Below, one piece after another: positions 1 to 59,507 of a stretch of 64,000 bases of DNA. Each line of letters begins with the position of its first letter. Position 1 is the stretch's first letter. The stretch spans positions 32,019 through 96,018 of the forward strand of contig CAZPMS010000004.1 of NCBI GenBank assembly GCA_964588165.1, in the 5' to 3' direction. The DNA comes from an uncultured Gammaproteobacteria bacterium. Lineage in GTDB: Bacteria; Patescibacteriota; Patescibacteriia; UBA1558; UBA10009. A program made the position numbers and the translations under genes. The notes beneath the pieces are model-generated. The model was not told the DNA's origin. It ran no database searches and saw only the letters and a list, made by a program, of their open reading frames with translations.

Positions 1-1143
1 TCATTAATGCTATTTGTATAACTGTCAATCTCACCCAAAGAATCTCTAACCTCTAAATTTATGGTAAAAGTGGAAGTGGAATTATAAACATGGCTTTTAA
101 TATAGCCTCTAAAGTCCGTTTCCCAAGTAGTGTCAAAAGTTGCATCGTTTTCCCAATCCCATCTAAAATCCAAGTCGGAAATATCTTCTTCAAAATCGGA
201 AGTGCAATTGGCGTTAAAGCTAAATACCTGATCCACAACATCGGATGAAGCCGGATCTACCGTAAAGCAAGCTAGAGGGACTTTATTTTCGTTCCAATCA
301 AATCTCATTTGATAAAGCTGCGGGGTAACATTGGTGTTGGTTGTCTGTAATCTGGCTTTCCAATAAAGCTCATTGCCTATGCTGCCCAAAAAAGGAACAT
401 AAACCGCATCCGGAACAGACTCACCTGGAAATTCAAACCAGATATTATTATGCGGCTGCCCGCTAGTGTCGCCATACCAATCAGAACCGTTATTAGAAAC
501 CTGGTATTTCATAGTATGTCCAAAAGGCCATTGAACCGGTTGGAAAGTAACTCCTATAATATCATCATTACTTACTCCTGATAATAAATTAGTAGAAAAA
601 ACATTGCCATTAGGATGATACTTAGGCGGATTAAGCGGCAACTCTACTAGAGCCCTTACAGTATCCCAAGTATCACTAGTAGCCGAACCTTTATAAATCT
701 CATCATTAAAACTTTCTACAAAATAAGTGGCAGTATGATTAGTTACCCGATGTGATAATGATAAAGCTGCCTGAAAATATTCGCTCCAAATACCAGATTT
801 GGCTGTTCTGGTTCTAAATAATAAAGTTGGGGCATAAATTTTGGAAGTGGACCAAAAATAAACTCCACGCTTAACACTAATCACTGTAAAATTGGCATCT
901 ATATCAGACCAAATCTCGCCGCCATCAGTAGAATATTGGAGTTCTATATCGTCCGGTATATCTTGAGATGCAGTAATATCAATTACAATAAGTGAATCAT
1001 AAGGATCATCAGTTCCACCATTACTTAAAATATCATCTCCGCCAATAAAAGCCACCGTGGGAGCAGGCGGCGCTTCTTGGGCTTTAACCGAAATAACGGC
1101 CACAAGCAATAAAGTAAAGCAGATTGTGATTATTCTAATTTTC
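1..1143 (-). CDS. Secreted protein with N-terminal signal peptide, 3'-truncated by window edge. Starts at ATG 1143 (MKIRIITICFTLLLVAVISVKAQ...). The supplied ORF track lists no ORF covering this span.
   Basis: Manual reverse-complement translation from 1143 gives an uninterrupted frame to position 1. The N-terminus is hydrophobic and signal-like. It lies in an operon with two downstream secreted proteins. Confidence 0.6.
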
Positions 1144-1157
1144 ATTTATTTTTAAAA

Positions 1158-2027
1158 TTATAGGCCCGAAGGTAGGTTATAATTTTCATCAATACAACCC
1201 CTTAAATACAAATTGCCATCATTATCAAAATAGGCCATAGCATCTGCACCTGGGAAATTATTGCTATGGATTACAAAATTATTTGGGTCTGCCGGTTCAT
1301 CATCAGGTATATCAAAATTTTCTATAACTTCGGCACCGGCAATATATAATCTACCTTCCGGACCCTGAAAAAACCAATCTTTGGAACAATACCAAAACAT
1401 AGCTATGGTAGCGCCAACATCATTCTTTATTTCATAATAATAGTGTTCACCATCAGCAGAACAACCATCTACATTATTTTTTAAATCATTAAACTCCGCA
1501 GGTAAAGTTTCTTTAAAAATAGGATACCAGCCAACACCGTAGATAGCTAAATCGCCCAGCTCAGTAAAAAAAGCTACATCTTCGTTACCCGGTGCTTTAA
1601 TGGCCAGCTTGGTAAAATTACCCGGATCTGTAATTTCACATTCTTCACCACCTGGATCCGGGCCATAACCAGAACTACCGCCGCCGCCAAAACTATCCAG
1701 TAAACAAGAACCGCAATTAGCATCTAATAAAGGCAGGTAACAAAGGCCTGGAGGCGTACAAATTGCCGGCGTAAAAGGAAAAACAGGATTAATACAAGAT
1801 GAACAATCATCATTAGAATCACAAGAAGTTGGAAAATAAGCACAAAATTCTCCTCCTGGACATTGAGAATTATCAGCACAAGCTCCGCTACCACCGTCGC
1901 CGGCATCTCTGGCATAAACTAACTTTAATTGGCGATCAATACTGGTTGATCCAAAAAAAATAAAATAAATACCGACAGATAATAAGGCAATTATGGTTAA
2001 GCCTGTAATTAAATAAGTTTTTTTCAT
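1158..2027 (-). CDS. Cys-rich secreted or membrane-anchored hypothetical protein
   Basis: 289-aa ORF with an N-terminal TM/signal segment (LITGLTIIALLSVGIYFIFF), many Cys residues and Gly-rich stretches. Confidence 0.6.
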   Translation of the reverse strand: MKKTYLITGLTIIALLSVGIYFIFFGSTSIDRQLKLVYARDAGDGGSGACADNSQCPGGEFCAYFPTSCDSNDDCSSCINPVFPFTPAICTPPGLCYLPLLDANCGSCLLDSFGGGGSSGYGPDPGGEECEITDPGNFTKLAIKAPGNEDVAFFTELGDLAIYGVGWYPIFKETLPAEFNDLKNNVDGCSADGEHYYYEIKNDVGATIAMFWYCSKDWFFQGPEGRLYIAGAEVIENFDIPDDEPADPNNFVIHSNNFPGADAMAYFDNDGNLYLRGCIDENYNLPSGL

Positions 2028-2029
2028 AA

Positions 2030-4567
2030 CTATTCGCCTAAATTAATAATTACATTTCCATTGCTAAATTCAATTACAGTATCACCATCTGATTTTTGGA
2101 TATTGCCACCCAAACGCATATCACCATCCACTTCTAAATCATCTTCAACATATAAATCGCCGTCATCTGTTGCTAAACCATTGGCACAATTTTCTTCATC
2201 ACAAATTTTTACTAAACCGTCCCAAACTGTTAAATCTCCGCTTCCTGCAGACGAAAAGCCACTATCATCATTAACTGAAATTCCGCCATAAACTTTAACA
2301 TCCCCGTTCACGCCTAATTTTGATGAGGGGTTTGTTGTCCCAATACCAACATTCCCCCTATAATTTGCCAAAAAAACATCGCCATCGGTACCGTTTAACT
2401 GCTTTTGACCACCATTTAAATAAAGGCTGCCTCCATTATAGTCTGCTTCCGGGTCTTTGTTATGGACCAATACTCCTTCAGCAAAATAAGTATTGGGGCT
2501 TTCTACGCTTAAATTATAAACCAGCAGTTCTTGGTTAACTTTTTCTTTACTGCTTAACTTTAACCAACCATCAGCTGTAAACAGTTTATCACCAATAGCT
2601 AAATCTTTAACTTTTTTCCATCCTTTGCTGGTATAAAAAGGATGTTCAGGAGTTACTTGAATATGATTATTTAGAATATAAAATGAATTTGCTTTTCTTG
2701 AAAATAAATCTAAAACTTTTACCTCAACCTTTTTATCAGCTTCAATATCATAACCCAAAACAGTATCGCCTATTTTTAAATCTTTTATCATTGTAACGCC
2801 ATTAGGAGTGCTTATCCTTGTTTCACCAGAAAAACAAACGCTGGAGCCACCAGCGGTTATTTGTAAATTATTACCGGTGGTACTAGAATCATCAATACTG
2901 ACTGCCCTGGCTGAACCGTCGTTAAAAGTGATATCACCATCATTTAAATCTAAATCGCCGTTGTTTAAAGTAAAGCCTTCAGTATTTACAGCTCCATTAT
3001 TTACAACAAGGGTTCCCTCAATGTAAGTATCTCCGTCTGATTCAATTTTAAACCTATCATTACTTTCATTTTGTAATAACAGCAAACTGCCAATGGAAGC
3101 ACTATCAATATTTCCATAAATTAAATTATCTGATACATTATCCAAATCTAGTGAAGCTGAGCCAGCTATAAACATATTGTTTAAAACCAAATTACCATCC
3201 TTTTCTACGGTTAATCTTATTTCTTCACGCGACAAGGTATCATCCCAGGTAGTAAAAAGCAGGTCATTGTTACTGTGAATAATTAAATCATCAGTAGTTG
3301 CGCCAACTCCCCTTAAAACACTATCGCCATCATTAGCATTATAATTTAAACACGTATTACAGGTAGACATACCTAATTGTACTGCTTTAGTATCAGAAGA
3401 TCTTGCCGTTAAGCTTGGATATGTTGGATGCTCAATAATTATATTGCCGTCATCATAAACTCTAACTGCATTAGCTACAGTTGTATTATCTGCAGATATA
3501 TAAGTGCCTTGATCAGTCCATAAGCCATCACCACCGCCTACTGCTGCCCAATTGGCTATACAATCACCGTTAATACAGATTTCATCAGAAACATTAATGT
3601 CGCCGTTAACATCCAGTTCATAGGCTGGATTCTCACCAGCAAGAGTATTTATTCCAACATAATTAGTAGCTCTTGCCGGGTTTATAATAATGTCTCTACT
3701 GGCTGTTATAAAAAAATCGCTAGTTGCATTATCAAGATAAAAATAGCCATTCTCCGTACCTACAAGCAACTTAAATTCAGCATTGTTATTTGTTGACTCA
3801 ACTAAAGCTGTTTGACGGCCAGGCCCATAAACATACAATTCTACATTTCCCGGACTATCTGTTCCTATGCCCACTTTGCCATCATTAGTTATTACCATCT
3901 TTGGCGAAGTAAAGGTTGTTCCGCCAATAGCATCAGAACGGGTAAAATCCAAACCGCCAATTGCCGATTGGGCACCAATTTTCCAGTTATAATGGGTGCT
4001 GGCAATATTGGATATAATTCTAAGTCCGGATCCGCTACCGCCTAAAGGATTATTATTAATTAAAAAATTTCCATCTTCTATACCAAACGGTCCATAAAAA
4101 TAACCGGACCAGCCACCCGTAGTATTTTGCGATTGCAATGCCACGCTACCGGCCATACCTGTATTAGTAACCAATAAACTAATGGCCGCATCTGCTGTAT
4201 TATCCGAATTATCAATAACTACTACTGAATCTGATTCAGCCTCTACTCTTGTTAAATTGGCTTCTATATTTAAAGCTGACTGAACAGTAGAAGTAAAGTT
4301 AATTAAAGAACCAGCAAAATCATGGCTGGGGCTGCCAGTTACATTAATAGTATTATTAAAAGTTGCCGATGAGTCTACGGCCAATTCGCCCTGAATGGTT
4401 AAGTTTCCGGCTTTAGTTTGTGGATCGCTACTTACATCAATTGGCCTAGGCCTATTGCCAGTCGGTGGATTACTGGGAGGCGGCTCCCAAACATCAGCTT
4501 TTACTGTTGGTGTAATAAAGCTTAATGCCAAAAAAAATGACAAAATAATAAAAATTGTTTTTTTCAT
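2030..4567 (-). CDS. Large secreted surface protein (845 aa) with an internal bacterial intein-like (BIL/Hint) domain and a 142-aa Asp/Gly-rich C-terminal module
   Basis: Signal peptide MKKTIFIILSFFLALSFITPTVKA. Long Asn/Gly/Thr-rich beta-type region. The Hint block runs CFSGETRI ... TPEHPF ... VYNLSVESPNTYFAEGVLVHN. Confidence 0.7.
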   Translation of the reverse strand: MKKTIFIILSFFLALSFITPTVKADVWEPPPSNPPTGNRPRPIDVSSDPQTKAGNLTIQGELAVDSSATFNNTINVTGSPSHDFAGSLINFTSTVQSALNIEANLTRVEAESDSVVVIDNSDNTADAAISLLVTNTGMAGSVALQSQNTTGGWSGYFYGPFGIEDGNFLINNNPLGGSGSGLRIISNIASTHYNWKIGAQSAIGGLDFTRSDAIGGTTFTSPKMVITNDGKVGIGTDSPGNVELYVYGPGRQTALVESTNNNAEFKLLVGTENGYFYLDNATSDFFITASRDIIINPARATNYVGINTLAGENPAYELDVNGDINVSDEICINGDCIANWAAVGGGDGLWTDQGTYISADNTTVANAVRVYDDGNIIIEHPTYPSLTARSSDTKAVQLGMSTCNTCLNYNANDGDSVLRGVGATTDDLIIHSNNDLLFTTWDDTLSREEIRLTVEKDGNLVLNNMFIAGSASLDLDNVSDNLIYGNIDSASIGSLLLLQNESNDRFKIESDGDTYIEGTLVVNNGAVNTEGFTLNNGDLDLNDGDITFNDGSARAVSIDDSSTTGNNLQITAGGSSVCFSGETRISTPNGVTMIKDLKIGDTVLGYDIEADKKVEVKVLDLFSRKANSFYILNNHIQVTPEHPFYTSKGWKKVKDLAIGDKLFTADGWLKLSSKEKVNQELLVYNLSVESPNTYFAEGVLVHNKDPEADYNGGSLYLNGGQKQLNGTDGDVFLANYRGNVGIGTTNPSSKLGVNGDVKVYGGISVNDDSGFSSAGSGDLTVWDGLVKICDEENCANGLATDDGDLYVEDDLEVDGDMRLGGNIQKSDGDTVIEFSNGNVIINLGE
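2459..2836 (-). other. BIL/Hint (bacterial intein-like) domain, 126 aa, embedded in CDS 2030..4567
   Basis: Intein block A (CFSGETRISTPNG), block B TxxH (VTPEHPF) and block F/G (VYNLSVE..NTYFAEGVLVHN) are all present. The +1 residue after HN is Lys, not Cys/Ser/Thr, so this is BIL-type rather than a splicing intein. Confidence 0.6.
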
Positions 4568-6740: not shown

Positions 6741-6770
6741 TTGACAAAAATAGCCAATTTTATCTATAAT
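6741..6770 (+). promoter_or_regulatory. Sigma70-like promoter (TTGACA, 18-bp spacer, TATAAT) immediately upstream of the clpC ATG
   Basis: ttgaca at 6741-6746 and tataat at 6765-6770. The ORF-track start at 6741 is this TTG -35 box. The true start is more likely the ATG at 6780. Confidence 0.5.
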
Positions 6771-6779
6771 AAATATCCT

Positions 6780-9293
6780 ATGAACGAAACTGAAATCTTC
6801 AAAAAATTTACCGGCCATTTAAAGAAAATTTTAACTCTGGCCCAAGATGTAGCTGCCGGCCTGCACCACCAAACCATAGAGCCGCTCCATCTTTTATATT
6901 GCCTGGCTAATGAACGTGGCAGTATTGGAGCATCTATTTTATATAAAAATAAACTAACCCCTGATAAAGTTAAGTCTGTTTTAGAAATTCTAAATAACCA
7001 TCAAGTGGCCCAAACTACCACAAAAGCCTTGCCTGTTCTTTCTAAGCAGTCACAAATAATTCTGGAAAGGGCCGTTAAAACAGCTTTTCAAAACCAGCAC
7101 AAATATATTGGCACAGAACACCTGCTTTTTAGTTTAATTGGCTCAACTGAAAAATTACTTTCAGATTTCTTTAATGAAAATAAAATAAACCCTCAAGGAT
7201 TACAAAACCACCTAAGAATTATCCTAAAAAGCACTTCAAAATTTTCTGACCTTACATCCGGTAAAACCGAGCTGCCGAATGAATCTTCTTTAGAAAGAGT
7301 TATGGTTGATAACTTAAGGCCGGATAACGATTCTGCCTTAAGTAATTTTGCCATTGATTTAACTGAAAAGAGCGTTCAGGCAAATATTGATCCCGTAATA
7401 GGCCGAGAGTTGGAAATTGACCGCTTAATCCAAATCCTTTCCAGGCGGACTAAAAATAATCCTATTTTATTGGGTGATCCCGGTACCGGTAAAACTGCTA
7501 TTGTAGAGGGTTTGGCCAAAAGAATTAATGAGGATAAAGTACCGGATGTTTTAGCCAATAAAAGAATTTTAAACTTAGACCTGGGCTCTACTTTAGCAGG
7601 CACCATGTACAGGGGCGAATTTGAAAACAGGTTAAAACAAATTATAGAAGAAGTTAAAAGCGATCCCAATATAATTTTATTTATTGATGAAGTCCACACT
7701 TTAATGGGAGCTGGCAATGCCACAGGCTCTTTGGATGCTGCTAACCTTTTTAAGCCGGAACTGGCCCGGGGCAATTTAAGGCTTATCGGCGCCACTACCA
7801 CGGAAGAATTCAAAAAACATATAGAGTCTGATCCGGCCTTTGAAAGGAGATTCCAGCCGATTATAATTGTGGAATCCAGCCCAGAAGAAACCGGAGATAT
7901 CTTAAAAGGAATTAAAAAAAATTACGAAAAATACCACCAAGTTAAAATTTCTGATGATGCTATAGAAGCTGCCATAGAACTTTCGGTTAGATATTTAACT
8001 GATAAATTTTTGCCTGATAAAGCCATAGATTTAATTGATGAAGCTGCTGCAAAAATTAAGGTAGAAGAAACTAAAAACGGCTTGGTTAAAACCATAAAAA
8101 AACTGGAGTTGGAGCTGAAAAAAATCCAAAAAAATAAGGAGCTTTTAATTTTAGAAGAAAAATTTGACGAAGCACTTAAATTCAAAAACCAAGAAGAAGA
8201 TATTTTAGTAAAGCTGGATGATTATAAAAAACAGGAGGAAAAAGAAAAAAAGAAAATCTTAGGCACCATTACCCGGAAAGATATTGCCATGGTTTTATCC
8301 AGGATGACAAAAATTCCTGTTTCTGAACTTATTTTAGAAGAAAAACAAAAACTTTTAGAGCTGGAAAGTACTTTACAGAAATATATTATCGGCCAAGATA
8401 AAGCTATTAAAGAACTGGCCGAAAGCATCAGGCGTTCCAGAGTGGGACTTTCCCATCCCGATAAACCAATAGCTTCATTTATATTTTTAGGCCCGTCCGG
8501 AGTTGGCAAAACCGAAACTGCTAAAGTACTGGCACGGGAAGTTTTTGAAAATGAAGATGCCTTAATTAGAATTGATATGTCGGAGTTTGCCGAATCTTTT
8601 AATATTTCCAAATTAATTGGGGCCCCAGCCGGTTATGTGGGTTACAAAGAACAAGGCAAGCTGACTGATGCTGTTAAAAAAAGGCCTTACAGCGTAGTTT
8701 TATTTGATGAAATTGAAAAAGCCCACCCAGAAGTTTTTAATTTGCTACTGCCGATTTTAGAAGACGGGCACATTACGGATGCTGTTGGTAAAAAAATTAA
8801 TTTCAAAAATACTATCATAATAATGACTTCTAATATTGGCCTTTCGGAATTTAACCGCTTTAGCTCTTTAGGTTTTGGCACTAAAGATAAAACTGACCAG
8901 CAGAAATTAATTGATGACTATATGATTTTAGAGGAAAAAATCCAGGCCGGCTTAAAAGATACTTTTAAACCGGAATTTTTAAACCGTTTAGACAAAGTGG
9001 TTATTTTTAAGCCTTTGGATGAAAAGGCCGCACTGGAAATCAGCAAACTTCAACTGGAAGAGCTTACCCAAAGAATCGCCCGACAAAACTATACCTTAAA
9101 AGTGAGCCAAAAAGTAATGAAACTGATTGTTGAACAAGGTTTTACTGCAGAAGAAGGCGCCAGGGGCATAAGAAGAGCTATTCAAGAAAAAATAGAAAAT
9201 CCTATAGCTTCTCAGCTGTTGAGTGATAAATTTAAAGCTGGTGATATAATTAAAGTTGGGACGGCAAAAGATAAAATTATTTTTGATAAGTAG
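6780..9293 (+). CDS. clpC: ClpC/ClpB-family AAA+ chaperone ATPase (Clp_N domain plus two AAA modules)
   Basis: Clp N-domain repeats. Walker A motifs GDPGTGKTAIVEG and GPSGVGKTETAKVLA. A LGFG loop in the second module is a possible ClpP-docking loop. Confidence 0.85.
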   Translation: MNETEIFKKFTGHLKKILTLAQDVAAGLHHQTIEPLHLLYCLANERGSIGASILYKNKLTPDKVKSVLEILNNHQVAQTTTKALPVLSKQSQIILERAVKTAFQNQHKYIGTEHLLFSLIGSTEKLLSDFFNENKINPQGLQNHLRIILKSTSKFSDLTSGKTELPNESSLERVMVDNLRPDNDSALSNFAIDLTEKSVQANIDPVIGRELEIDRLIQILSRRTKNNPILLGDPGTGKTAIVEGLAKRINEDKVPDVLANKRILNLDLGSTLAGTMYRGEFENRLKQIIEEVKSDPNIILFIDEVHTLMGAGNATGSLDAANLFKPELARGNLRLIGATTTEEFKKHIESDPAFERRFQPIIIVESSPEETGDILKGIKKNYEKYHQVKISDDAIEAAIELSVRYLTDKFLPDKAIDLIDEAAAKIKVEETKNGLVKTIKKLELELKKIQKNKELLILEEKFDEALKFKNQEEDILVKLDDYKKQEEKEKKKILGTITRKDIAMVLSRMTKIPVSELILEEKQKLLELESTLQKYIIGQDKAIKELAESIRRSRVGLSHPDKPIASFIFLGPSGVGKTETAKVLAREVFENEDALIRIDMSEFAESFNISKLIGAPAGYVGYKEQGKLTDAVKKRPYSVVLFDEIEKAHPEVFNLLLPILEDGHITDAVGKKINFKNTIIIMTSNIGLSEFNRFSSLGFGTKDKTDQQKLIDDYMILEEKIQAGLKDTFKPEFLNRLDKVVIFKPLDEKAALEISKLQLEELTQRIARQNYTLKVSQKVMKLIVEQGFTAEEGARGIRRAIQEKIENPIASQLLSDKFKAGDIIKVGTAKDKIIFDK

Positions 9294-9381: not shown

Positions 9382-9765
9382 ATGTTCTACAAAAACTTCT
9401 ATGATATGCCAGTTTGGCAAACTGGAGCAAAAATGGTCGAGGAAATATACTTGATTTCAAAAAATTTTCCAACCGAAGAAAAGTATGCTCTAACTTCTCA
9501 ACTCCGGAGGTCGGCGAACTCAATAATTGCCAACTTTGCGGAAAGTTACGGCAGATACTTTTACAAAGATAAAATTAGAGTTCTCTACATTGCTAGAGCA
9601 GAAGCTGAAGAAACATGAAGTCATTTATTAATTGCTAAAAAACTACTTTATTTAGATAAAGAAAAACATAAAGAATTAGATAAAAAATATAATCATTTAA
9701 TAATTGATATAAATAAAATGATTATTAAATACCACTATAAAAACAAAAATAAAAAAGGATTATAG
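9382..9765 (+). pseudogene. Four-helix-bundle protein (TIGR02436, 23S rRNA intervening-sequence protein family), frameshifted
   Basis: N-terminal 78 aa match the family (SQLRRSANSIIANFAESYG...LYIARAEAEET) and end at a TGA at 9616-9618. The +1 frame continues with the expected C-terminus (KHEVIYLIAKKLLYLDKEKHKELDKKYNHLIIDINKMIIKY) to a TAG at 9763-9765. Confidence 0.6.
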
Positions 9766-47289: not shown

Positions 47290-50211
47290 TTATTTTGCTT
47301 TATCCTTTTTTAATTTATTAAAAAATTCCTTTAATTCCTCTTGAGTTTTGCCTCTAATATCAGTAATTTCAAAATCTCCACCCATTTTAAAGTTTTCTAT
47401 ATATAAATCCGTACCTTTAACTTTAACATCTATTTGGCCCTTGCCATTAAATGTGTTCATATCATTCCTATAACCTTCCTGATTCCTTAAGCTGTCATAG
47501 TTATCTACGGCCTCTTCGTACTTAAGGCCAGTTTGTTTTAAAATAGTAGCCAAGTGCCCTTCTGGGCCATTGAGTTCTTTCCTCCGCCATTCATGCTTTT
47601 TTTCTGAATCATTATCATAACCCTTAGACCTTAAAGATTTTAGGCCCAATTCCCTAATAATATTTAATAGGGTGATAAACTCTTCCTTTTGGCTGCCTTT
47701 TAATTTTTCTTCGGCAATTTTTCTCCATAGAACATAGTTTTGGTCTTTAGAAAAATTTTCCAAATGGCTTTCGGTTACCCTGCCTCTAGCCAAGGAATAA
47801 ATTATCTGGGAAGCGGAATTTAAAGACCGTTCCACCCAGGCCGTTTGGACCAAAGAATCCCTATCACCGGTAATATTATATTCTTCCGGGGTGCCAACCG
47901 GAATCTCTTCATAGCCCACTAAACGATTGGCGTTTTGTAAAAGTTTATCATAAGCAATTTTGCCGGTTTCATAAGCAATTTCCAATTGCCTTTCTTCTGG
48001 GCCATAAAAACTTAGGTTGCCATCTGGGCCTGCCGAAGTTAAACGGGCATCCTGCCAATGTAAAATCTTTTCAGCTGCATAGCCAACATCAGTACCCAAT
48101 AAAAGCGACTGGTTCATAGACATGCCCACACCTTTGGCATCATCTATTTTGCCATACTTACTGCTATATAATCTGTTATATTCTGCCCTCTCTTTACGTG
48201 TCATGCCTTTTTTTCCTACCAGTTCTCTCATAATAAACTGCTTCATGCCTTCGCCGCTGGAACTGTAATTAAAAGAGTTTAAAACTTCATTGGCATTACC
48301 GTCAGAAGTGGCCTTAAGTAAAACCGCCCCGGCTTTATCAAAATCCTTCCTGGCAATAGCATCTTCTAAATCTACAACTAATTCTTTCCATTCAGTAGAA
48401 GTTACATTTTTAAGCTCATCAAGATAACCGCCCCTTAAACGTTTTTTCATATCATAATTAACCGGGCCTCTTATATCCCTTAATTTACTGTCTACGCCGG
48501 CTCTTTCTTCTGATAATTTACCAATGGCTACTCCCAAGTTATTTAAATTGCGGCCTATGGCAACAGTTTCAACCACTTCGCCCTCGTCATCTTCAATTTT
48601 TACTCCCCCTTTTAACAATGATTCATCGCTGGCATCCAGTTTTAAGCCGATTAAATTATTATTCTTTTTATTTTCTAATTCGTTATAGGTTGCCAGATTG
48701 GGAGCGTCTAAATTTTCAACTCCATGAAGTTTTAGCTCTCTATATTTTTCCAATTCATCTTTGCCTAAACTCATTTCCGCTCTTTTATCAATATCATCCA
48801 GCCTGTATAACTGCTCCGAAATGGTATTATACCTTTGTTGTCTTTTTTTAATTTTTCTTCCGGCCAAGCCTTCTTTGGATGTTCTTTTAAAAATTCCCCA
48901 GTTCCATCTATCACTAAAAAAATGGTCTGGCGTGCCTAAAGCGCCAATCATGCCTCCGCGTTTAGTAGATCTGGCCAACATAGCATCTCGGCGCCTTTTT
49001 CTCCTGACTTCTTTACCTCTGGTCCAGCCATCTTTCCAATCTTGGGCCTTTAGAGGTATGCCAATGGCTGTTTCTACTTTATCCTTAACATAGCCTGCCC
49101 CTTCTTTAGCTAGGGTGCCGGCACCCCTTAAAGGAGCAGTAACTTTTCTGGCTGCCTTGCTGCCCCAATCAGAAAGCTTGCCTGATACTTTGCCGGCAAA
49201 CTTACCGGCAAATCCTCCGGCCTGCTGCGAATACTGCAAAGCTATTAGCATTAAGGCAGTGGCCACAATAAAGCTATAAAAACGTTCCCACTGGCTAATG
49301 GCGGTAGCACCGCCTTGAGACTGGCCGGCCGCCTCGGAACCTAGTTCAGAGCCGCCAAAACCGGCTGCTAAAATAGATAAAGCCAGCCACAAAAAGAAGG
49401 CTAAAATAATTCCAGTTGTTAACTGCTGCCAAAATTTAGTCCATAGTTCACTGGCATATTTTGTGGTAGAAGCAAAAGCAGAAAGTAAAAAAGCCAGAGG
49501 CGATAAAATAACCAAAACCCATAAAGAAATAATACGGTATAACAGCACGCTCACATAAGCCAACATTACTCCTATGGCAATTACCAATAAAATTATACCC
49601 AATAAAAGTGAAGCAAAAATTTCCCAGTTATTTATTGTGTCGCCGCCCGCCGGATCTGGCGCATTTATATGCAATATTTCCGTTAAGCCAAAAGCGTTAA
49701 CTAAATTATTGGCAGCTGCATCCCTAAAAGCATTTACAAAAGTTAACATTATTACCTGGCCAAAATCTATAAAGAATCCCATTATGGTCTTGGAAAAATT
49801 TATTAAAATGGCCATCAAAATAAGTTTAAAAAGGGTGTTCTTATAATGGTAATTGGAAATTTTTAAAATTGTAGAAAAAGCAATCACCAGCAAAAAAACC
49901 ACAAAAAACATATTGGAAACATCTCTAACCAAAGGCCAGCCAATGGTAACTGCATTAGAATCTAAAAAATTATTATAACTGACTATTTTAACCAGTAAAT
50001 TAATTAGGGGCAATAAAATATAAGCGCCTAAAAAATTAATAATGGCCAAAAAAAGATTTGCAAAGAAAGCCAGAATACCAACACCAAAATCTTCACCAAA
50101 ATCTGAGCCCTCCAATTTCTGTGCCAAAGCTATGGTTGGCAATAAAAAAATTGTGGTTAAAACAACCAGTTTTATTTTATGCTTTTTAATTTTTAGAAAA
50201 ATAATTTTCAT
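47290..50211 (-). CDS. Polytopic membrane protein (~7 TM in the N-terminal 330 aa) with a ~640-aa hydrophilic C-terminal domain. Possible VirB6/TrbL-like.
   Basis: Multiple hydrophobic helices, then a charged domain. The VirB6-like call rests on topology only. Confidence 0.5.
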   Translation of the reverse strand: MKIIFLKIKKHKIKLVVLTTIFLLPTIALAQKLEGSDFGEDFGVGILAFFANLFLAIINFLGAYILLPLINLLVKIVSYNNFLDSNAVTIGWPLVRDVSNMFFVVFLLVIAFSTILKISNYHYKNTLFKLILMAILINFSKTIMGFFIDFGQVIMLTFVNAFRDAAANNLVNAFGLTEILHINAPDPAGGDTINNWEIFASLLLGIILLVIAIGVMLAYVSVLLYRIISLWVLVILSPLAFLLSAFASTTKYASELWTKFWQQLTTGIILAFFLWLALSILAAGFGGSELGSEAAGQSQGGATAISQWERFYSFIVATALMLIALQYSQQAGGFAGKFAGKVSGKLSDWGSKAARKVTAPLRGAGTLAKEGAGYVKDKVETAIGIPLKAQDWKDGWTRGKEVRRKRRRDAMLARSTKRGGMIGALGTPDHFFSDRWNWGIFKRTSKEGLAGRKIKKRQQRYNTISEQLYRLDDIDKRAEMSLGKDELEKYRELKLHGVENLDAPNLATYNELENKKNNNLIGLKLDASDESLLKGGVKIEDDEGEVVETVAIGRNLNNLGVAIGKLSEERAGVDSKLRDIRGPVNYDMKKRLRGGYLDELKNVTSTEWKELVVDLEDAIARKDFDKAGAVLLKATSDGNANEVLNSFNYSSSGEGMKQFIMRELVGKKGMTRKERAEYNRLYSSKYGKIDDAKGVGMSMNQSLLLGTDVGYAAEKILHWQDARLTSAGPDGNLSFYGPEERQLEIAYETGKIAYDKLLQNANRLVGYEEIPVGTPEEYNITGDRDSLVQTAWVERSLNSASQIIYSLARGRVTESHLENFSKDQNYVLWRKIAEEKLKGSQKEEFITLLNIIRELGLKSLRSKGYDNDSEKKHEWRRKELNGPEGHLATILKQTGLKYEEAVDNYDSLRNQEGYRNDMNTFNGKGQIDVKVKGTDLYIENFKMGGDFEITDIRGKTQEELKEFFNKLKKDKAK

Positions 50212-50214
50212 TTT

Positions 50215-53200
50215 TTAATCTTTTGGCCTTATTCTAATTTCTTCTCCAGTAGAAATTAGATTGCTGGTAACGCAATTATCATGGTCGCCGCTGGCACACC
50301 AGCCCCAATGGTCTACTAAATTAACGGCCGGGGCATCAAACACGCAATCATCGCCCACCAAGCTGCCGCCCGGGCATTCAATACACCTATCACCTTTGGT
50401 ATTGGTAATACAAGTGTAATAATTATAAAAGCTGTGGTTGCCTTGAATAAACGGCCCATACTCTAAATCTCCTATGCCCCCGGTTTCATCACCCCATTCA
50501 ATATAAATCTGCTCAATCGGCATCTGATCCGGATCTACTGAACTGGTAAAATTAAGATAAACCAAGCCGCCCGGTGCTTTAAGATCGCTGGCACCATCAA
50601 CCCGCAGATCAGTAATAGCCGGAGGGGTAGATATGTCTGGATCATCAGAAATATCCATTTGATCTAAGCTGGCAATACCACAATCTTCTGTACCATCTGG
50701 CCACGGATTACATAATTCATAACTACTGCCATCCCATTGCCAGACCCCATATATTTTAGCAAATAAATTTTGGATTCTTTCTAAAGCATCCTGTTGGCCA
50801 GGATTACCCCTAGAACCACTATAAATAGGCATTTGTAATTCGCCTAAAACAAAGTTTGGATCTTCTTCATTTTCATTACCAAGTCCTCGGCAAGTTCCAT
50901 AAGCTTCTTCTACGCAATCATTATTAGTGCTACAAGGTTGGCCATTGGTTAAATTGTTAAAGGAGTTATAACAAAATTTTCCAATACCGGAACAAATGCC
51001 AGCTTCAATATTAGTAGAGCAATCATTAATTAAATCTTCGCCATCGCCAATATCTGATTCCAAACATTCATTACCCAAGGCCGGACCGCTTATACAGGTT
51101 CTGCCGGCAGTGGCCGCAGGTATAGTCATAGTATCTTGGGTAGAAATTGGGAAGCCAGCATAATATTTATTATAACTGCCACCCTGGAAAACCGATAAAG
51201 GTAAAATACTAGGATTCCAACTATTTGGCAGTTCGTTTTCCGGCTGGACAAAACTGCCGTAAGGGCTGGAATTAAGTACGCTGGCTGGCATATTTTTAGT
51301 TAGGCCCAATTCATTGCCGCTACCATAAGACCAACCATAATTAAATCTATCTAACCAAGCTTTTTCTTCACCTTCTTCGTTAACTACTTGGACAATTTCA
51401 GTACAAACATCCTTAAGATAAAAAATTAATCTAAACCCCCAATCATCATCTTGATTATCACCATCGGCAGCCCCATAGGCTACTGTTTCAATATTGCCAA
51501 AATCGTCAAAATTAACCCTCACTCTAGTTCCGCCGCTAGGCCCTTCTTCACCATAACTACCCTCTTGTCTACCCCAGCCATCACCCATACACTTCCAATT
51601 AAAATAATAATAATTACCAACTGGTTCGTATAGTAGTGAATAAATAGTTTCAAATTGTGGATAACACTCTTCACTATCATCAAAAGTTGTTAAAACATTA
51701 ATAGCTTGAATTTCACTATAATTCAGGGACCACAACTCTTCGGGCGATGAATCGCTAAAAAATATTGAATGCGAGGGCACTGAAACAACTATATCAGAGA
51801 ATCTATCATGCCAAGCCATCTTTATGTTAGTAGCCCACTTATAACCACAGTAGCCATTTTCACCAACATCGCTTGGTATTTCCTGACAAACATCACTATA
51901 ATTATCACTATAATTAGCTCTGCCTTGACTTTGTAAACAATAATATAAAGGTCTTCTATCCTGATAGCCAATATCAGCAATATTAAAAATGCTGGACATA
52001 TCACCGGATAAGCTATCTACCGGGTACCACTGCAAACAGTTTTGCCAGTTATCTGGGCTGGAAACATTATTTTGATAATAAGGATCGGGTTCCAAGCAAT
52101 AACCGTTCCAGCCATTAAATAATTGATTAGTTTGGTAAGAACAACTTGGTGAATCTTCACGAGGGAATAACCGGCAATCTTTACCCACCAAAGTAGATTC
52201 ATTAACTTCCAAAACAGGCTCCAGTAAAATATTATCGTACCAAATAGTGCCTTTAAATGGATAAGTATCATTTTCCAAATTCCTTAAATCTATCCTTACA
52301 TATTTGGCATCTGGCGGAATTTCTTTAAAACTATGGCTTTCGCCTTCCGGGCCAAAAGTTATAATGCCTTTTTGCCAATCACTGGCTGAAGTTGGATGGC
52401 TAGGGCTTGTAGAACATTTATTGCTGGTTGGGTTGCAGTAAATGCCTCTAACATTACTGCCGCCTGAACTAATTCCACAATAACCAGGGCTGCCTGCTGA
52501 CACGCCATCTTTGCATTGGTTAAAATTACCATCAAACCAAGTTAAACCGGCTGCGCCCCTAATTTGGCTGTTAGAAGAAAGGCTATAATGGATCAAGGAA
52601 TAATATGAATCAGGATCAATAAAATAAAAACCATTATCATTGCCGCCACGGGAACTGAATGGGCAGATTGTTTGATCATTATCCGGATCTTCTTCTCTTA
52701 GGGTTATGGATAAGCTATATTGGCCAGCTAAAACCTTATTGGTATCTAAACTGTAAGAACAATAATCGCGAGTGGTATAGAACCCATTTATCCCTTCAGA
52801 ATCTGCCCAGTTGGCCAGCCAATTTTTAATATTTGGAGAACTATCTAAATCACCGCTGAAATTTTCAAAACTGCCGTTATCTACTTTAACTTTATGGCCC
52901 ACCTGCTGCATATTTTCCGGTGAATAATAACCTTCTATAACATTTCCATCGCCCCAATCCAAGCCTACATGGCTATAACCGGATAAATATCTGGTTTTAT
53001 CTACTTCGGTACCAAAATCAAATGTCTGCACTTCTGGAGCGCTAGTTGGCGGCACTAAATCTGCACACTCGGATGAATTTTCAGGGTTCAAGCCTTTACA
53101 TCTAACCAAATCCAGGCAGGAATATTCACCTTCGGATACTTGAATGGCTCCACCGCACTGCAGCCATTCGGAACACTCTCTATCTTTAACTACACTATAA

Positions 53201-56200
53201 TACTTGTTTGAATCGCAATAGCTGTTGCTGGTAAATGGAGCTTCTGTATCGCAATTTGCCGGGGTATTGCCGTCTGCCGTGGCCTGGCTGCTCCAGTCTA
53301 AACTATTATTACTGGTATCATTAAATAATAAGCAACCAGCTTCTCTGTCTACTACACCATCTTTGCAGGCTTCGCCAACTTCTAATGTATTATTTAAATA
53401 ATAATAAGGTTCACAAACTGAATTATAAATACAATATTCATCACCCTCTTGTACGCTACATGCCCTTACGGCATCAGCATCCGGATGCGTACTACACCTA
53501 TTATCACCGCTTGGGCCAATACAACAATCTTCACCGTCAGGACCTACTGCCGGATCTCCAATATCACAATACCAATCATAGGCTGAATAGTAGATATCTT
53601 CGCCCGGAGCGGCTTGAGTACAGCCTAAGGTATTAAAATCATTGCCTTCTTCCCGGCAAACTTTATGCTGAATGCCATTTATTTCTACTCGGCAATAACT
53701 ATTGGAAATATCCTCACAAATTCCGGTTAAGTTAGATGAAATTGATGAATCACATATTTCTGCACTCTCAAACATAGGTTGTTCCGGGTCTAAATACTCT
53801 GTACAAGTTGATTCTGAAGCAGGGCAAACGCCAACCCAGCCTTCATAATTATACTGCCCCTCTATTGGTAAAAATTTATCATCGTAGCATGGCTCATCAG
53901 TACCTGTCCTTAACCATCTATTACCGCTAAAGTAGCAGGTTCTGCTTTCTTCTTCGCCACCTGCACCAACAGGATCAAAGTAAGCACTTTGGCCGGTAAG
54001 TTCACCTGTAAAAGAAGTGCAGAACAAGGAACTTTCACTGCATAAAGAACTTCCATAATTATCCGGATTATTAATTAAATTAACGGTACCATAACCATCT
54101 ATAAAATTTTCATCTGTATAATCTTCTAGCTGGCGGTTAAATGAAGGTTTGCCTAAACGCTGGCAACCCTGGTTTGAGCCAGAACATTGTTTATCAGGAT
54201 CATTTACTAAATACAATATTTCATCATTAGGCACTTTGGCTACCTCATAATTACATGAATCTCCACCGCCAACATTACACTTAACTTCTCCCCTAATAAT
54301 ACAATCGCCATCAGCATCTATTTGGCCGACTGTATTATTACAAATACCCTGGCCACCAAAGCCATTATCATATACTTTTTCTGATTGGTAATTTGTTGAA
54401 TTCTGGGTGGTTAAATAAGCTTCACAACCAATAGAAGTAGAAGAACAAATAAAGTCAAAAGATTTTAAGTTATAAATTTGGTTCTGCCTATCTAAATATT
54501 GCTGGCAACCAAGTTGAGCGCCATCGCTTGGCGTATCACAAGAATTTGGAGTTTGCCAAGAATTTTCTATCACATAAAAATTATTTGTATATTCCTTGAG
54601 AGTAATATTATCTACAAAAAATGCTTCATTGCCATCTAGGCCGTTAATAATCAATCTTGTTTGGCCATAAGTTCCTACATCGTCAAGCTCTACCGGCCCT
54701 AAGTTATAAAGCCGCCACTCAGAAGTTAAACCATCCAGCTCAAAATTAAGCAAAGTTGTATCGGTTGGATCTGCCGCTTGTGCCTTTTGTCCAAACAAAG
54801 AAGCTAATTTTTGGAAAGGCGTGCTTAGAGTAACAGGTTCCACCTCAAATAAATCCTCTACATCCGCTTTAGTTCCTCCGGGCACATTTCCTTTTTTAGC
54901 CCAGAAAGATAAAACATATTCTTTGCCTGATGATATCTGATTTATTAAATTATTAATTATAGTATCATTGCTTACAAATCCCCTTAAAGAATGGCCTCCC
55001 TGGTAAACTGATTCATTAGAAACAATAATGCCTAAGCTGCCTTCTTCTGTATTTTCCCAGCCTTCAGAAATTCCGCTTTCAAAATTGCTAAAAATTACAT
55101 TGCGGATATTATTACCGTTATTTCCCCTGTATTCCCGGCAACCATTAAATGTGGCTGAACAACTTATGCCTTCGGCAGGGTCGGCATTATAAATTTCACC
55201 CGTAGCTGTTCTACGGTAAGGCCTGCAATCACCAGAGGCAGTAATTGTCCTATCTTGGAGCCTCCAAAAAATATCACCATCGGTATCAAAAAATTCCCGG
55301 CAATTTGGATCGGTTTCTGCTTCTAAAGCAGTGCAGCTGGCTTGGGTTTCTAAAGTATCCTGGCACTCTTCGGTGCCGATTTCTATATTAGTACAAGGGC
55401 CGATATCAATATTACTGGCCAATAAATTCCATTTCTTTAATTGATAACCGCTGGTATCAGAGCCTTCCCATGTAAAGTAGCTTTGGATATTGGAATTATT
55501 TGGTGAAATACACTGCCTTAAATATGTAAAATATTCTATGCCCTCGCCGCCCTGGGCTACCTCATCTAAATTGGTAAACTGCTCACAGCCGGCATCTTGG
55601 ACCGGGCATTCTTGGGCTGTTTGAGGTATAAAGTTTTGGTAAAACGGATCTACGTCTGGATCTTCTACCTTTTCAAAAAAGGTATTAAGCTGCAAATAGC
55701 TATCGTAGCCAACACACTCCACTGGGCAAACATTATCTTGGGTAACTTTAGCTGATATTTCCGGACCGCCGGTTAAAGGAGTATAGCCTTGGCAGCCGAT
55801 TTCATTAGCTTTACAAAAAGTGGCATAATTTTGGCACAAGGCATCGCCGCTTTGGACACAGAAATTAATATCACTGCGCCAATAATGGCCGTCCGCAAAA
55901 CAATCAGCCTTATTAGCTTCTGAATAATCCAATAAAAGATCATTATAGCCTTCGCAAGCTAAATATTCCGGAGCCACTCTTATAAATTGCCTGGCATAGT
56001 TATCATCCTGGCTGTAATCTTGCTGATAGTTATTCGGATCAAAGTTAAAGTTATCTAAATTATGGGCAACTACCGGTGACCCGGTAACTGCCAACTGGAT
56101 ATTATCGTACCAAACAGTACCTGTTTCGCCAGAACCGTCAGTGGTCCGCGGGCCGTTAATTTTTATAACGGCATATTTGGCATTGGCCGGAATTCCGGTT

Positions 56201-58674: not shown

Positions 58675-58691
58675 TATATTTTTAAAATATA

Positions 58692-59507
58692 TTAACTTTC
58701 AGTTTGCATTTCAGATTTTAATACTTCTCCCCAAACATCAAGCAAATCTTGATCAGTTAAATTATCTAAATCATCTTTATTAAAGCCTTCTTGCAAGAGT
58801 AAGCTTCTTAACTGATCAGGCGTTATTAAATTATAGTTTTCCGGTTGAAGTTCTTGAAAATTCCCGCTACTGCCTTCTACTTCCTGAACGGTTTCTGCAT
58901 AAAGCTGGCTTAAGGTTTCATCGTCAAGGGCATTTACATCATCCTCACTAAAGCCGCTTTGGATTAACAATAAACGAATTTCTGCTGGCGTTAAATCTGC
59001 TTCCAAACCTGGCAACTCTGTTATTTGATCGCCCGGCAATAGCAAACTGCAATCTTGGCCGGTTGGGCAGTTGGGATCATAATTATTTTGGATTTCATCA
59101 AAATCGGTAAAGCCGTCGGAATCTGAATCAGGCAAATAAGGCGAAGTTTGATAAAGGTATAATTCATCATAATCAGAAAGGCCGTCTAGATCTGTATCTT
59201 TTTGCTGAAGCTCCAATAAATTTGCTACATCATTTTCTGCTAAATTAAAGTTGGCGTTAAGCTCTTGAATATCGCCTTCTTTGGCAAAAGGAACTTTTAA
59301 AGAATTTAACCAGCCGTTAACCGAAAAAAATAAGCCAACTACCGAAATTATTACAATTAAAAATAGGGCTATTTTAGGACTAGATTCTTTTTTTTTGACC
59401 TCCTCTTTGGTTTCTTCAAAAATCTCTTTATCTGTTAAAACTTCTTTTTCTTGATCCAAATTTTCCATAAAATTTATACTAAAACAACAGACATAATAAT
59501 TGTTCAA
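58692..59507 (-). CDS. Membrane-anchored protein with thrombospondin-type-3/dockerin-like Ca-binding Asp repeats and a duplicated ~32-aa C-terminal motif
   Basis: TM segment (IALFLIVIISVVGLFF). DTDLDGLSDYDE...DSDSDGFTDFDE. Tandem repeats TPAEIRLLLIQSGFSEDDVNALDDETL and TPDQLRSLLLQEGFNKDDLDNLTDQDL. Confidence 0.6.
   Translation of the reverse strand: MNNYYVCCFSINFMENLDQEKEVLTDKEIFEETKEEVKKKESSPKIALFLIVIISVVGLFFSVNGWLNSLKVPFAKEGDIQELNANFNLAENDVANLLELQQKDTDLDGLSDYDELYLYQTSPYLPDSDSDGFTDFDEIQNNYDPNCPTGQDCSLLLPGDQITELPGLEADLTPAEIRLLLIQSGFSEDDVNALDDETLSQLYAETVQEVEGSSGNFQELQPENYNLITPDQLRSLLLQEGFNKDDLDNLTDQDLLDVWGEVLKSEMQTES

Follow-up and report, generated by a model that had tools for sequence, protein, structure and literature searches.

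A 64-kb stretch of DNA from an uncultured bacterium (hereafter the window: contig CAZPMS010000004.1 of assembly GCA_964588165.1, positions 32,019 to 96,018) encodes a secreted, fibre-like protein of 845 amino acids (aa), P0001 (window 2030..4567, minus strand), and within this gene, at 2459..2836, lies a genuine Hint domain, recognised by a match far above chance. Probably, though by no means certainly, this is an intact mini-Hint that resembles the A-type bacterial intein-like (BIL) domains while belonging to a separate group in which the domain is followed by a lysine (the +1 position), that is inserted in a loop of the fibre and excises itself after export, and that is not part of a pretoxin module. 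P0001 is the first gene of an operon, and the identical protein is found on eight contigs with conserved neighbours. The window contains no rRNA. The assignment of the fibre protein to the candidate phyla radiation (CPR) is putative and rests on its relatives, the closest of which are from Komeilibacteria, Falkowbacteria, Parcubacteria and Omnitrophota.

The Hint domain and its catalytic residues

The domain comprises aa 578-703 (126 aa; window 2459..2836, minus strand, as are all segments of P0001 given below) and is supported by the translated open reading frame, by matches in Pfam, NCBIfam and PDB, by AlphaFold2 and Foldseek, and by profile comparisons. It begins with CFSGETRI at aa 578 and finishes with VLVHN at aa 703, and is followed by Lys704 and the rest of the tail, 142 aa in all. 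Direct re-reading of the codons places Cys578, the position 1 nucleophile, at 2834..2836 (2834-2839 reads Val-Cys, and an N-S acyl shift is predicted at the Val577-Cys578 bond), the block B motif Thr639-x-x-His642 (TPEH) at 2642..2653, the C-terminal pair His702-Asn703, the predicted site of Asn cyclisation, at 2459..2464, and Lys704, the +1 residue that is conserved with the Hint, at 2456..2458 (2456-2464 reads His-Asn-Lys). The Hint contains no endonuclease insert, 126 aa being the bare fold; the residues downstream of Asn703 include no Cys, Ser or Thr before a first Ser at +11; and no second Hint was found elsewhere within the window.

PT-HINT (PF07591) is the best-scoring Pfam model, with an E-value of 5.5e-14 over aa 585-703 and a score of 53 bits where the cutoff is 27.7, and other Hint models in Pfam match more weakly. 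The NCBIfam model of the intein C-terminal region, TIGR01443, scores 27.7 bits against a cutoff of 15.6; as a group, intein N- and C-terminal models give weak to moderate matches. As a single sequence, the Hint matches the 'bacterial intein-like domain' of PDB entry 2LWY over its full length with E=2e-8, and mini-inteins at about 1e-3, while a family profile gives 1.5e-23 for 2LWY, 5e-14 for the BIL2 domain of Tetrahymena BUBL and 2.7e-11 for the best intein. AlphaFold2, run with an alignment of 17 relatives, models the Hint at a predicted local distance difference test score (pLDDT) of ~95, with 92-98 in most 10-residue blocks and 81-85 in two. The best Foldseek matches are Tetrahymena BUBL BIL2 (E 2.7e-12) and 2LWY (template modelling score 0.84, root-mean-square deviation 1.8 A), followed by mini-inteins and Hedgehog 1AT0, and the probability is 1.00 to BILs, inteins and Hedgehog alike, as expected for a HINT superfamily fold.

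The N-terminal Cys and the TxxH of block B are likewise those of the HINT superfamily, and the C-terminal His702-Asn703, the Lys704 in place of a +1 nucleophile and the profile values, nearer to BILs (1.5e-23) than to inteins (2.7e-11), are those of A-type BILs. A preliminary description, made from the sequence of the window, had named a 126-aa Hint module at 2459-2836 of the 845-aa protein, followed by Lys and free of an endonuclease insert, with the features of an A-type BIL domain rather than of an intein. Coordinates and motifs turned out to be exact, and the family profiles that it called for agree (PT-HINT, E=5.5e-14; TIGR01443, 27.7 bits). It had also allowed that the catalytic Cys, His and Asn might be missing, or that a cryptic nucleophile might follow; the catalytic positions are present and conserved in 17/17 relatives, and no Cys, Ser or Thr occurs until +11. 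In that alignment Cys or Ser at position 1, Thr639, His642, Asn703 and Lys704 are invariant or nearly so, the Thr and His of block B strictly so (17/17). With all its catalytic residues present, the mini-Hint is predicted to be intact.

Insertion into a fibre module

Two segments of the fibre enclose the Hint. The N-side flank (aa 478-577, window 2837..3136, containing NLIYGNIDSASIGSLLLLQNE and, further on, NNLQITAGGSSV), which would act as the N-extein, is conserved beside the Hint in the 17 aligned relatives and is 40% identical to that of P0053, a Hint-bearing orthologue described below. The C-side flank (aa 704-760, window 2288..2458, running from KDPEADYNGGSLYLNGG to DGDVFLANYRGNVGIGTTNPSSKLGVNG) follows a pattern seen in relatives, is 51% identical to that of P0053, and has Hint-free homologues at three loci (L086, L111 and L134). 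In the closest single-Hint relatives, whose Hints are 35-58% identical, the flanks are conserved on both sides, with ..G(D/N)-h-x-L...R-x-I-Y...-x-L-K-I-x-A-G-x-x-x directly before the Cys and, after His-Asn, Lys-x(3-8)-G-G-x-L-Y-L-x-G-G...G-(N/D)-V-x-L...G-N-V-G-I-G-T. The unit of Hint and flanks has no fixed place in the fibre: between 142 and 2,038 aa follow the Hint. Some of the host proteins end in a Peptidase_S74 tail-fibre chaperone domain (P0098, L009).

The same module is found without a Hint. A profile of the flanks from which the Hint had been removed matches copies in other metagenomic fibres, at L134, L111 and L086, that are contiguous across the junction (E ~1e-12), and a Hint-bearing protein at L101 contains a second, Hint-free copy (E 6e-6). 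The junction loops of the Hint-free copies are rich in Gly, Ser and Asn and have no Lys. As such contiguous copies without a junction Lys exist, the Hint and its Lys behave like a joint insertion in a loop of a fibre module that was there before. The Hint-free loci were found by alignment of the C-flank through the generic GNVGIGT motif, and few of 80 loci were informative. A word-indexed homologue search with the Hint and 7-aa flanks returned one fragment only, and a search of this type with an alignment of the 'spliced' flanks returned nothing.

The rest of P0001 is fibre-like as well, which agrees with the secreted surface protein of the preliminary description. Tail-fibre motifs of the GNVGIGT type occur several times, there are paired cysteines, the Bdellovibrio fibre bd2133 is a weak match by profile, and no Pfam domain other than the Hint is present. 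A Sec signal peptide is predicted, by eye, at aa 1-24 (window 4496..4567; MKKTIFIILSFFLALSFITPTVKA, with D as the next residue), and no anchor is evident. The C-terminal fibre cap (aa 761-845, window 2033..2287, with WDGLVKICDEENC, DDGDLYVEDDLEVDG and the ending NGNVIINLGE) could be aligned with the C-termini of P0053 and of P0002, the latter a Hint-less orthologue, and the N-terminus of P0001 and the motif ADVWEPPPSNPP..NRPRP recur in the same two proteins.

The Hint family and the +1 lysine

An exhaustive HMMER search with the 126-aa Hint against 1.84 billion protein cluster representatives yielded 14,966 representatives at E<=1e-3 and 2,158 at E<=1e-10. Within the top 150 family proteins, 251 full-length Hint copies were located for counts of residues. 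Position 1 is Cys in 249 and Ser in 2 of these related sequences, position 2 is Phe in 230, and 244 end with His-Asn. Lys is found at +1 in 200 of the 251 (~80%), in 35/36 single-Hint proteins and at 87/95 internal junctions of arrays. A scan of one genome per species, with a peptide pattern that ends at the Asn and does not include +1, found Lys at this position in 68 of 87 copies; the relatives in these genomes come from many CPR lineages, Omnitrophota, Elusimicrobia, DPANN and other archaea, and others, with many proteins from Myxococcota.

Ten Hints of proteins annotated as polymorphic toxins, surface proteins or phage proteins (Nostoc, Oscillatoria, two from Paenibacillus, Leptospira, RHS proteins of Streptomyces and Asticcacaulis, Neisseria, a Ruminococcus phage and an Erwinia phage) served as a contrast. 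At +1 they have A, A, A, T, T, C, S, D, S and T, with Lys in none of the ten; the toxin-type Hints among them have tails of 69 to >200 aa, and their neighbours include SUKH-3 and DUF4279 proteins. A rough neighbour-joining tree without support values places seven of the ten in one cluster with 2LWY. The rest of this tree, which is indicative only, consists of Lys(+1) Hints with scattered non-Lys members, and there the Hint of the window groups with sequences from Omnitrophota, Komeilibacteria and Falkowbacteria. As judged from these sequences, the +1 Lys is a conserved feature of the group to which the window's Hint belongs, and more than a missing nucleophile.

Tandem arrays of two to six complete Lys(+1) Hints are present in 62 of 151 top family proteins (for example P0025, P0027, P0028, P0030, P0037, P0042, P0045, P0047 and P0048, and the loci L015, L048, L055 and L071). 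The linkers in these arrays consist of Lys and one to five Gly only, with KG observed 25 times, KGGG 23 times and KGG 11 times; P0037, for instance, has three Hints and KGG linkers. P0037, P0047, P0025 and P0028 have the same layout, namely a Sec signal peptide, RGGGG, three to five Hints, a Cys-rich stretch, a membrane helix and two Tim44-like domains.

Some further members deserve mention. In Polyangium, Nannocystis and other Polyangiaceae (L043, L044, L058, L059, L060, L064 and L065) an N-truncated Hint match is accompanied by a second, complete Hint that comes last, and the proteins end in ...LVHN-Tyr-stop, which resembles the layout of Hedgehog and leaves the N-terminal junction as the only one that can be of consequence; a domain scan of these relatives gave Hint matches only. 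The jumbo phage Erwinia phage vB_EamM_Y3 (L174, KY984068.1 73555-74991) encodes a tail protein annotated as 'contains intein domain', directly upstream of a tail fibre gene, whose Hint ends in His-Asn-Thr 10 aa short of the stop, and about 25 related Erwinia phages have the same arrangement. In P0003 (L001/L002 6001-9955, GCA_053939265.1) a Cys-rich N-flank precedes the Hint, whose C-terminal junction reads HN-KNPD, and this gene and a Peptidase_S74 fibre gene lie between pheS and pheT, an odd site for surface-fibre genes. The relative P0052 carries the NCBI name 'polymorphic toxin-type HINT domain-containing protein'.

Orthologues, operon and neighbouring genes

P0053 (L176 9001-11937) is a syntenic orthologue of P0001 that bears a Hint, in which the Cys at position 1 is replaced by Ser (SFAGETKI) and the TxxH, His-Asn and Lys are kept. 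Since P0053 has Ser here, the family appears to tolerate an oxygen nucleophile at position 1. The identity between the two proteins is 41% in the N-terminus, 25% in the middle, 40% in the N-flank, 56% in the Hint, 51% in the C-flank and 35% in the C-terminus, and the Hint being the best-conserved segment of the pair argues for selection on its activity. The orthologue in a third genome, P0002, has no Hint, and the whole Hint-bearing module is missing.

These two proteins also bear on the tail of P0001, for which the preliminary description had proposed a C-terminal effector or adhesin tip with DGDxxxxGG repeats that could be shed or exchanged. The length of 142 aa is correct, while the repeats are only loosely real; what the tail contains is about six G-D-hydrophobic strand-like motifs, one GNVGIGTTNP fibre motif and a CxxxxC pair. 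No toxin domain was found in these 142 aa by Pfam or NCBIfam. The first part of the tail is conserved beside the Hint in distant relatives, aa 757-844 are 37% identical to the C-terminus of the Hint-less P0002 (the last ~90 aa, including the ending NGNVII-x-LG-x), and the last ~40 aa align with P0053 at 44% identity, so that a homologue comparison speaks against an exchangeable module. Nor does the location near the C-terminus amount to a pretoxin arrangement, as the Hint is found anywhere along the fibres of the relatives, 142 to 2,038 aa from the end. The tail aligns with the ends of P0002 and P0053 and is therefore the regular end of fibres in this family, with no swappable effector.

The termini of these fibres share sequence motifs. 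The signal peptide of P0001 is followed by ADVWEPPPSNPPxxNRPRP (window 4400..4495, aa 25-56), and a looser motif, W-x-E/P-P...PP-x-G-N, is common to many CPR fibres (P0002, P0053, P0057, P0061, P0010, P0005, P0055 and P0004). At the other end, NGNVII(N/R)LG(E/N/Q) (window 2033..2062, the last 10 aa) is common to P0001, P0002 and P0053. The post-signal motif and the NGNVII ending may be sorting or docking signals.

The second gene of the operon (window 1158..2027, minus strand) encodes a Cys-rich protein of 289 aa that has a membrane or signal segment at its N-terminus and in which neither Pfam nor NCBIfam recognises a domain; it is no evident immunity protein. The third gene is represented by its C-terminal part (window 3..1145, minus strand) and measures 818 aa on longer contigs that encode the identical fibre protein. 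On those contigs the order is fibre, 289-aa Cys-rich protein, 818-aa protein, PilM, three small proteins, a PilB-type ATPase, a response regulator and a PilT-type ATPase, so that the type IV pilus genes of the operon sit beyond the start of the window. The operon of P0053 matches that of P0001 (loci L003-L005) in order, and a 202-aa counterpart of the Cys-rich protein holds the equivalent position beside P0053. Two related genomes show the same neighbourhood, with LemA, a small gene, the fibre gene and two genes, followed from PilM onwards in the genome of P0053.

Elsewhere in the window, ClpB (6741..9293, plus strand) is a single gene of 837-850 aa, as it is in L003, whereas the gene calls split it in two (497 and 354 aa) in L004 and L005, which carry the same fibre protein in identical form; strain variation or a frameshift may be the reason. 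A 78-aa open reading frame at 9382..9618 (plus strand), placed between ClpB and a phosphoribosyltransferase gene, is recorded as 23S_rRNA_IVP and matches, weakly, bAvd, a four-helix-bundle family of the type accessory to diversity-generating retroelements; the genes called within ~10 kb on this side of the fibre gene include no recorded reverse transcriptase. Two adjacent, very large open reading frames of 974 aa and 2,827 aa at 47293..58698 (minus strand) are both without a Hint.

Proposed processing and alternative explanations

I infer the chemical steps, and their outcome, as follows. Export and folding would come first and processing thereafter. Cys578 would attack the Val577 carbonyl and form a thioester by an N-S acyl shift, assisted by Thr639 and His642; Asn703 would then cyclise with the help of His702, by which the Asn703-Lys704 bond is cut; and an amine of Lys704 would attack the thioester, re-joining the two halves of the fibre and releasing the free Hint. 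If water were to win instead, the fibre would be nicked at the Hint loop. Two amines of Lys704 are candidates for the attack, namely the alpha-amine set free by the cut, which has been proposed for A-type BILs, and the epsilon-amine, which has been shown for BUBL BIL2; the ligated product would carry the tryptic peptide AVSIDDSSTTGNNLQITAGGSSVK or a branched equivalent. The chemistry established for A-type BILs, which splice by aminolysis and have no +1 nucleophile, runs through a thioester at the N-terminal Cys, a cut of the C-terminal junction by Asn cyclisation and an attack of the freed amine on the thioester, with cleavage products usually prevailing (PMC4031507), and in BIL2 of Tetrahymena BUBL the thioester is resolved by a Lys epsilon-amine, giving an isopeptide (PMC8616854). 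The arguments for a participation of the Lys are indirect: it recurs in different phyla and host architectures, neither the Hint-free modules nor the classical toxin Hints have it, and the linkers of the arrays are Lys-Gly(n) only.

Several points weigh against excision with re-joining. For the flanks, AlphaFold2 gives pLDDT <50 and no confident model, so that a single fold of both flanks in need of re-joining is a supposition. A precise empty-site allele of the P0001 gene was not found among the orthologues, as P0002 is without the whole module and not merely the Hint. The Lys(+1) counts are drawn from related sequences and are not independent events, and the epsilon-amine of Lys is a poor nucleophile at neutral pH unless it is activated. 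Sequence alone does not separate ligation, cleavage only and external transfer in the Lys(+1) group. Moreover, the A-type BILs that have been tested give mostly cleavage products (PMC4031507, PMC7664689).

This last observation favours the main alternative to re-ligation, which is near to the 'autoproteolytic release' of the preliminary description and to which I give a limited though real chance: the Hint would cut one or both junctions and the thioester would be hydrolysed, so that the fibre is nicked, or a C-terminal piece of 142 aa or an N-terminal piece of 577 aa is shed. Related fibres (P0098 and L009) already use a self-cleaving module, Peptidase_S74. However, hydrolysis needs neither a near-invariant +1 Lys nor linkers of Lys-Gly(n) only, the conserved fibre runs on for up to 2,038 aa past the Hint, and the C-terminal cap is a shared structural end and no cargo. 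It is improbable, in my view, that the thioester is handed to an outside acceptor, which would join the N-terminal 577 aa to an amine of the cell wall, a pilus or a host surface, or to the Lys of another fibre to give sortase-free polymers. The Hedgehog Hint does move its N-fragment onto cholesterol, BUBL BIL2 couples its N-extein to lysines in other proteins, P0001 has a signal peptide and no evident anchor, and the Hints at the extreme C-terminus of Polyangiaceae proteins (...LVHN-Tyr-stop) allow only N-side transfer or cleavage. Against this, the conserved C-flank and the Hint-free copies of the module suit an intramolecular loop insertion better, and such a transfer, for which no acceptor is known, is pure conjecture.

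A classical pretoxin Hint of a polymorphic toxin, which would release a C-terminal toxin and be followed by an immunity gene, is scarcely credible here, even though PT-HINT is the best Pfam model and the relative P0052 bears a toxin-type name. I rejected it on the lack of a toxin and an immunity gene and on the tail, which is common to Hint-less fibres; the next gene, Cys-rich with an N-terminal signal or membrane segment and without a recognisable domain, is atypical for an immunity protein, and +1 in the sampled toxin Hints (RHS, Paenibacillus, Nostoc, Neisseria and Leptospira), most of which cluster apart with 2LWY, is A, T, S, D or C. It is very improbable, too, that the domain is a canonical intein, or that it is a Hint which has decayed into an inactive ornament of the fibre. 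Weak to moderate matches of intein N- and C-terminal models and mini-inteins as structural neighbours would fit the former, yet the +1 residue is Lys with a first Ser at +11, the host is no conserved housekeeping protein, and a canonical class 1 intein was rejected for want of Cys, Ser or Thr at +1. Decay is at odds with catalytic residues that are all conserved and with a Hint that is the best-conserved part of the orthologue pair.

Going beyond self-excision from P0001, the Lys(+1) Hints might constitute a distinct prokaryotic class of ligating domains with a lysine amine as a built-in acceptor, which would make isopeptide 'splices' within a chain or join subunits head to tail. I consider this quite doubtful. 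If true, the assembly of pili by sortases, or the ubiquitin-like conjugation of BUBL, would have in this class a counterpart that needs no enzyme, spread over CPR, DPANN archaea, Omnitrophota and Myxococcota, with the Lys-Gly(n) arrays as multi-shot versions.

Implications

The presence of a Hint is in itself detectable by routine annotation, as the name of P0052 illustrates. A search of the literature on Hint domains in CPR, on tandem Hint arrays and on +1 Lys in BILs gave nothing relevant, with the primary BIL papers outside its scope and an earlier description of Lys(+1) thus possible. Within the literature searched, the Lys(+1) signature, the fibre-loop context, the Lys-Gly(n) arrays and the concentration in CPR, DPANN and Omnitrophota are apparently undescribed, and no paper linking Hint domains to CPR surface proteins was found, as the preliminary description had supposed for BIL domains.

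These Hints are found in surface fibres that may serve episymbiotic CPR and DPANN cells for contact with their hosts. Should the Lys take part in the reaction, the family would be a very large, unstudied self-processing group that re-joins or cross-links extracellular proteins without ATP or enzymes, and possibly a tool for protein ligation with no need of Cys, Ser or Thr at the junction. Should it not be involved, this would be an ordinary BIL-type domain in a new host protein, and the main value of the observation would be the warning that the label 'polymorphic toxin-type HINT' is misleading for such fibres.

Comparison with known systems

The closest known relative in sequence is the A-type BIL of C. 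thermocellum (PDB 2LWY), with which the Hint of the window shares a Hint fold of ~130 aa, Cys1, TxxH, the C-terminal His-Asn, and the lack of a +1 nucleophile and of an endonuclease; A-type BILs, too, reside in variable secreted proteins. In the rough tree, however, 2LWY groups with toxin-type Hints (+1 A, T, S or D) and apart from the window's Hint, whose group differs from A-type BILs in its near-invariant +1 Lys, its fixed fibre-module context and its tandem arrays. The C. thermocellum BIL that was tested presumably has Ala at +1. For A-type BILs, PMC4031507 cites Amitai 2003, Dassa 2004 and Aranko 2013. PT-HINT (PF07591), the best-scoring Pfam model, is by family an extracellular self-processing Hint like that of the window, but compared with PT-HINT toxins the protein in the window has neither a C-terminal toxin nor an evident immunity gene, the position of its Hint in relatives is variable, and +1 is Lys.

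BIL2 of Tetrahymena thermophila BUBL1 (PDB 6Y75, 6TMM), the top match in Foldseek and the second best by profile, also occurs in a repeated BIL arrangement and provides a precedent for a Lys-dependent outcome, an isopeptide (PMC8616854). It is eukaryotic, flanked by ubiquitin-like domains where the Hint of the window is flanked by fibre segments, and only 23-24% identical; its nucleophilic Lys is a residue of the ubiquitin-like domain downstream, apparently without being assigned to +1 in the same source. Class 1 mini-inteins (Ssp DnaB, gp41-1, Npu DnaE) have the same fold, the first and third chemical steps that are predicted here, a defined insertion site and empty sites elsewhere, the latter in the case of the window's Hint as Hint-free copies of the module. 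The window's Hint, on the other hand, is clearly further from them in sequence than from the A-type BIL, has no +1 Cys, Ser or Thr, and is found in a variable surface fibre and not in a conserved protein of replication or repair. Another self-cleaving module of the same class of fibres, as in P0098, L009 and the gene beside P0003, is Peptidase_S74, the intramolecular chaperone of tail fibres and endosialidases; its fold and chemistry are unrelated, it is C-terminal and not internal, and it is absent from P0001. C-type BILs, which are defined by their association with a PPS-1 domain (Dori-Bachash 2009, cited in PMC9185962), are Hints of predatory bacteria such as Bdellovibrio and myxobacteria, and the family of the window's Hint likewise has many members in Myxococcota.

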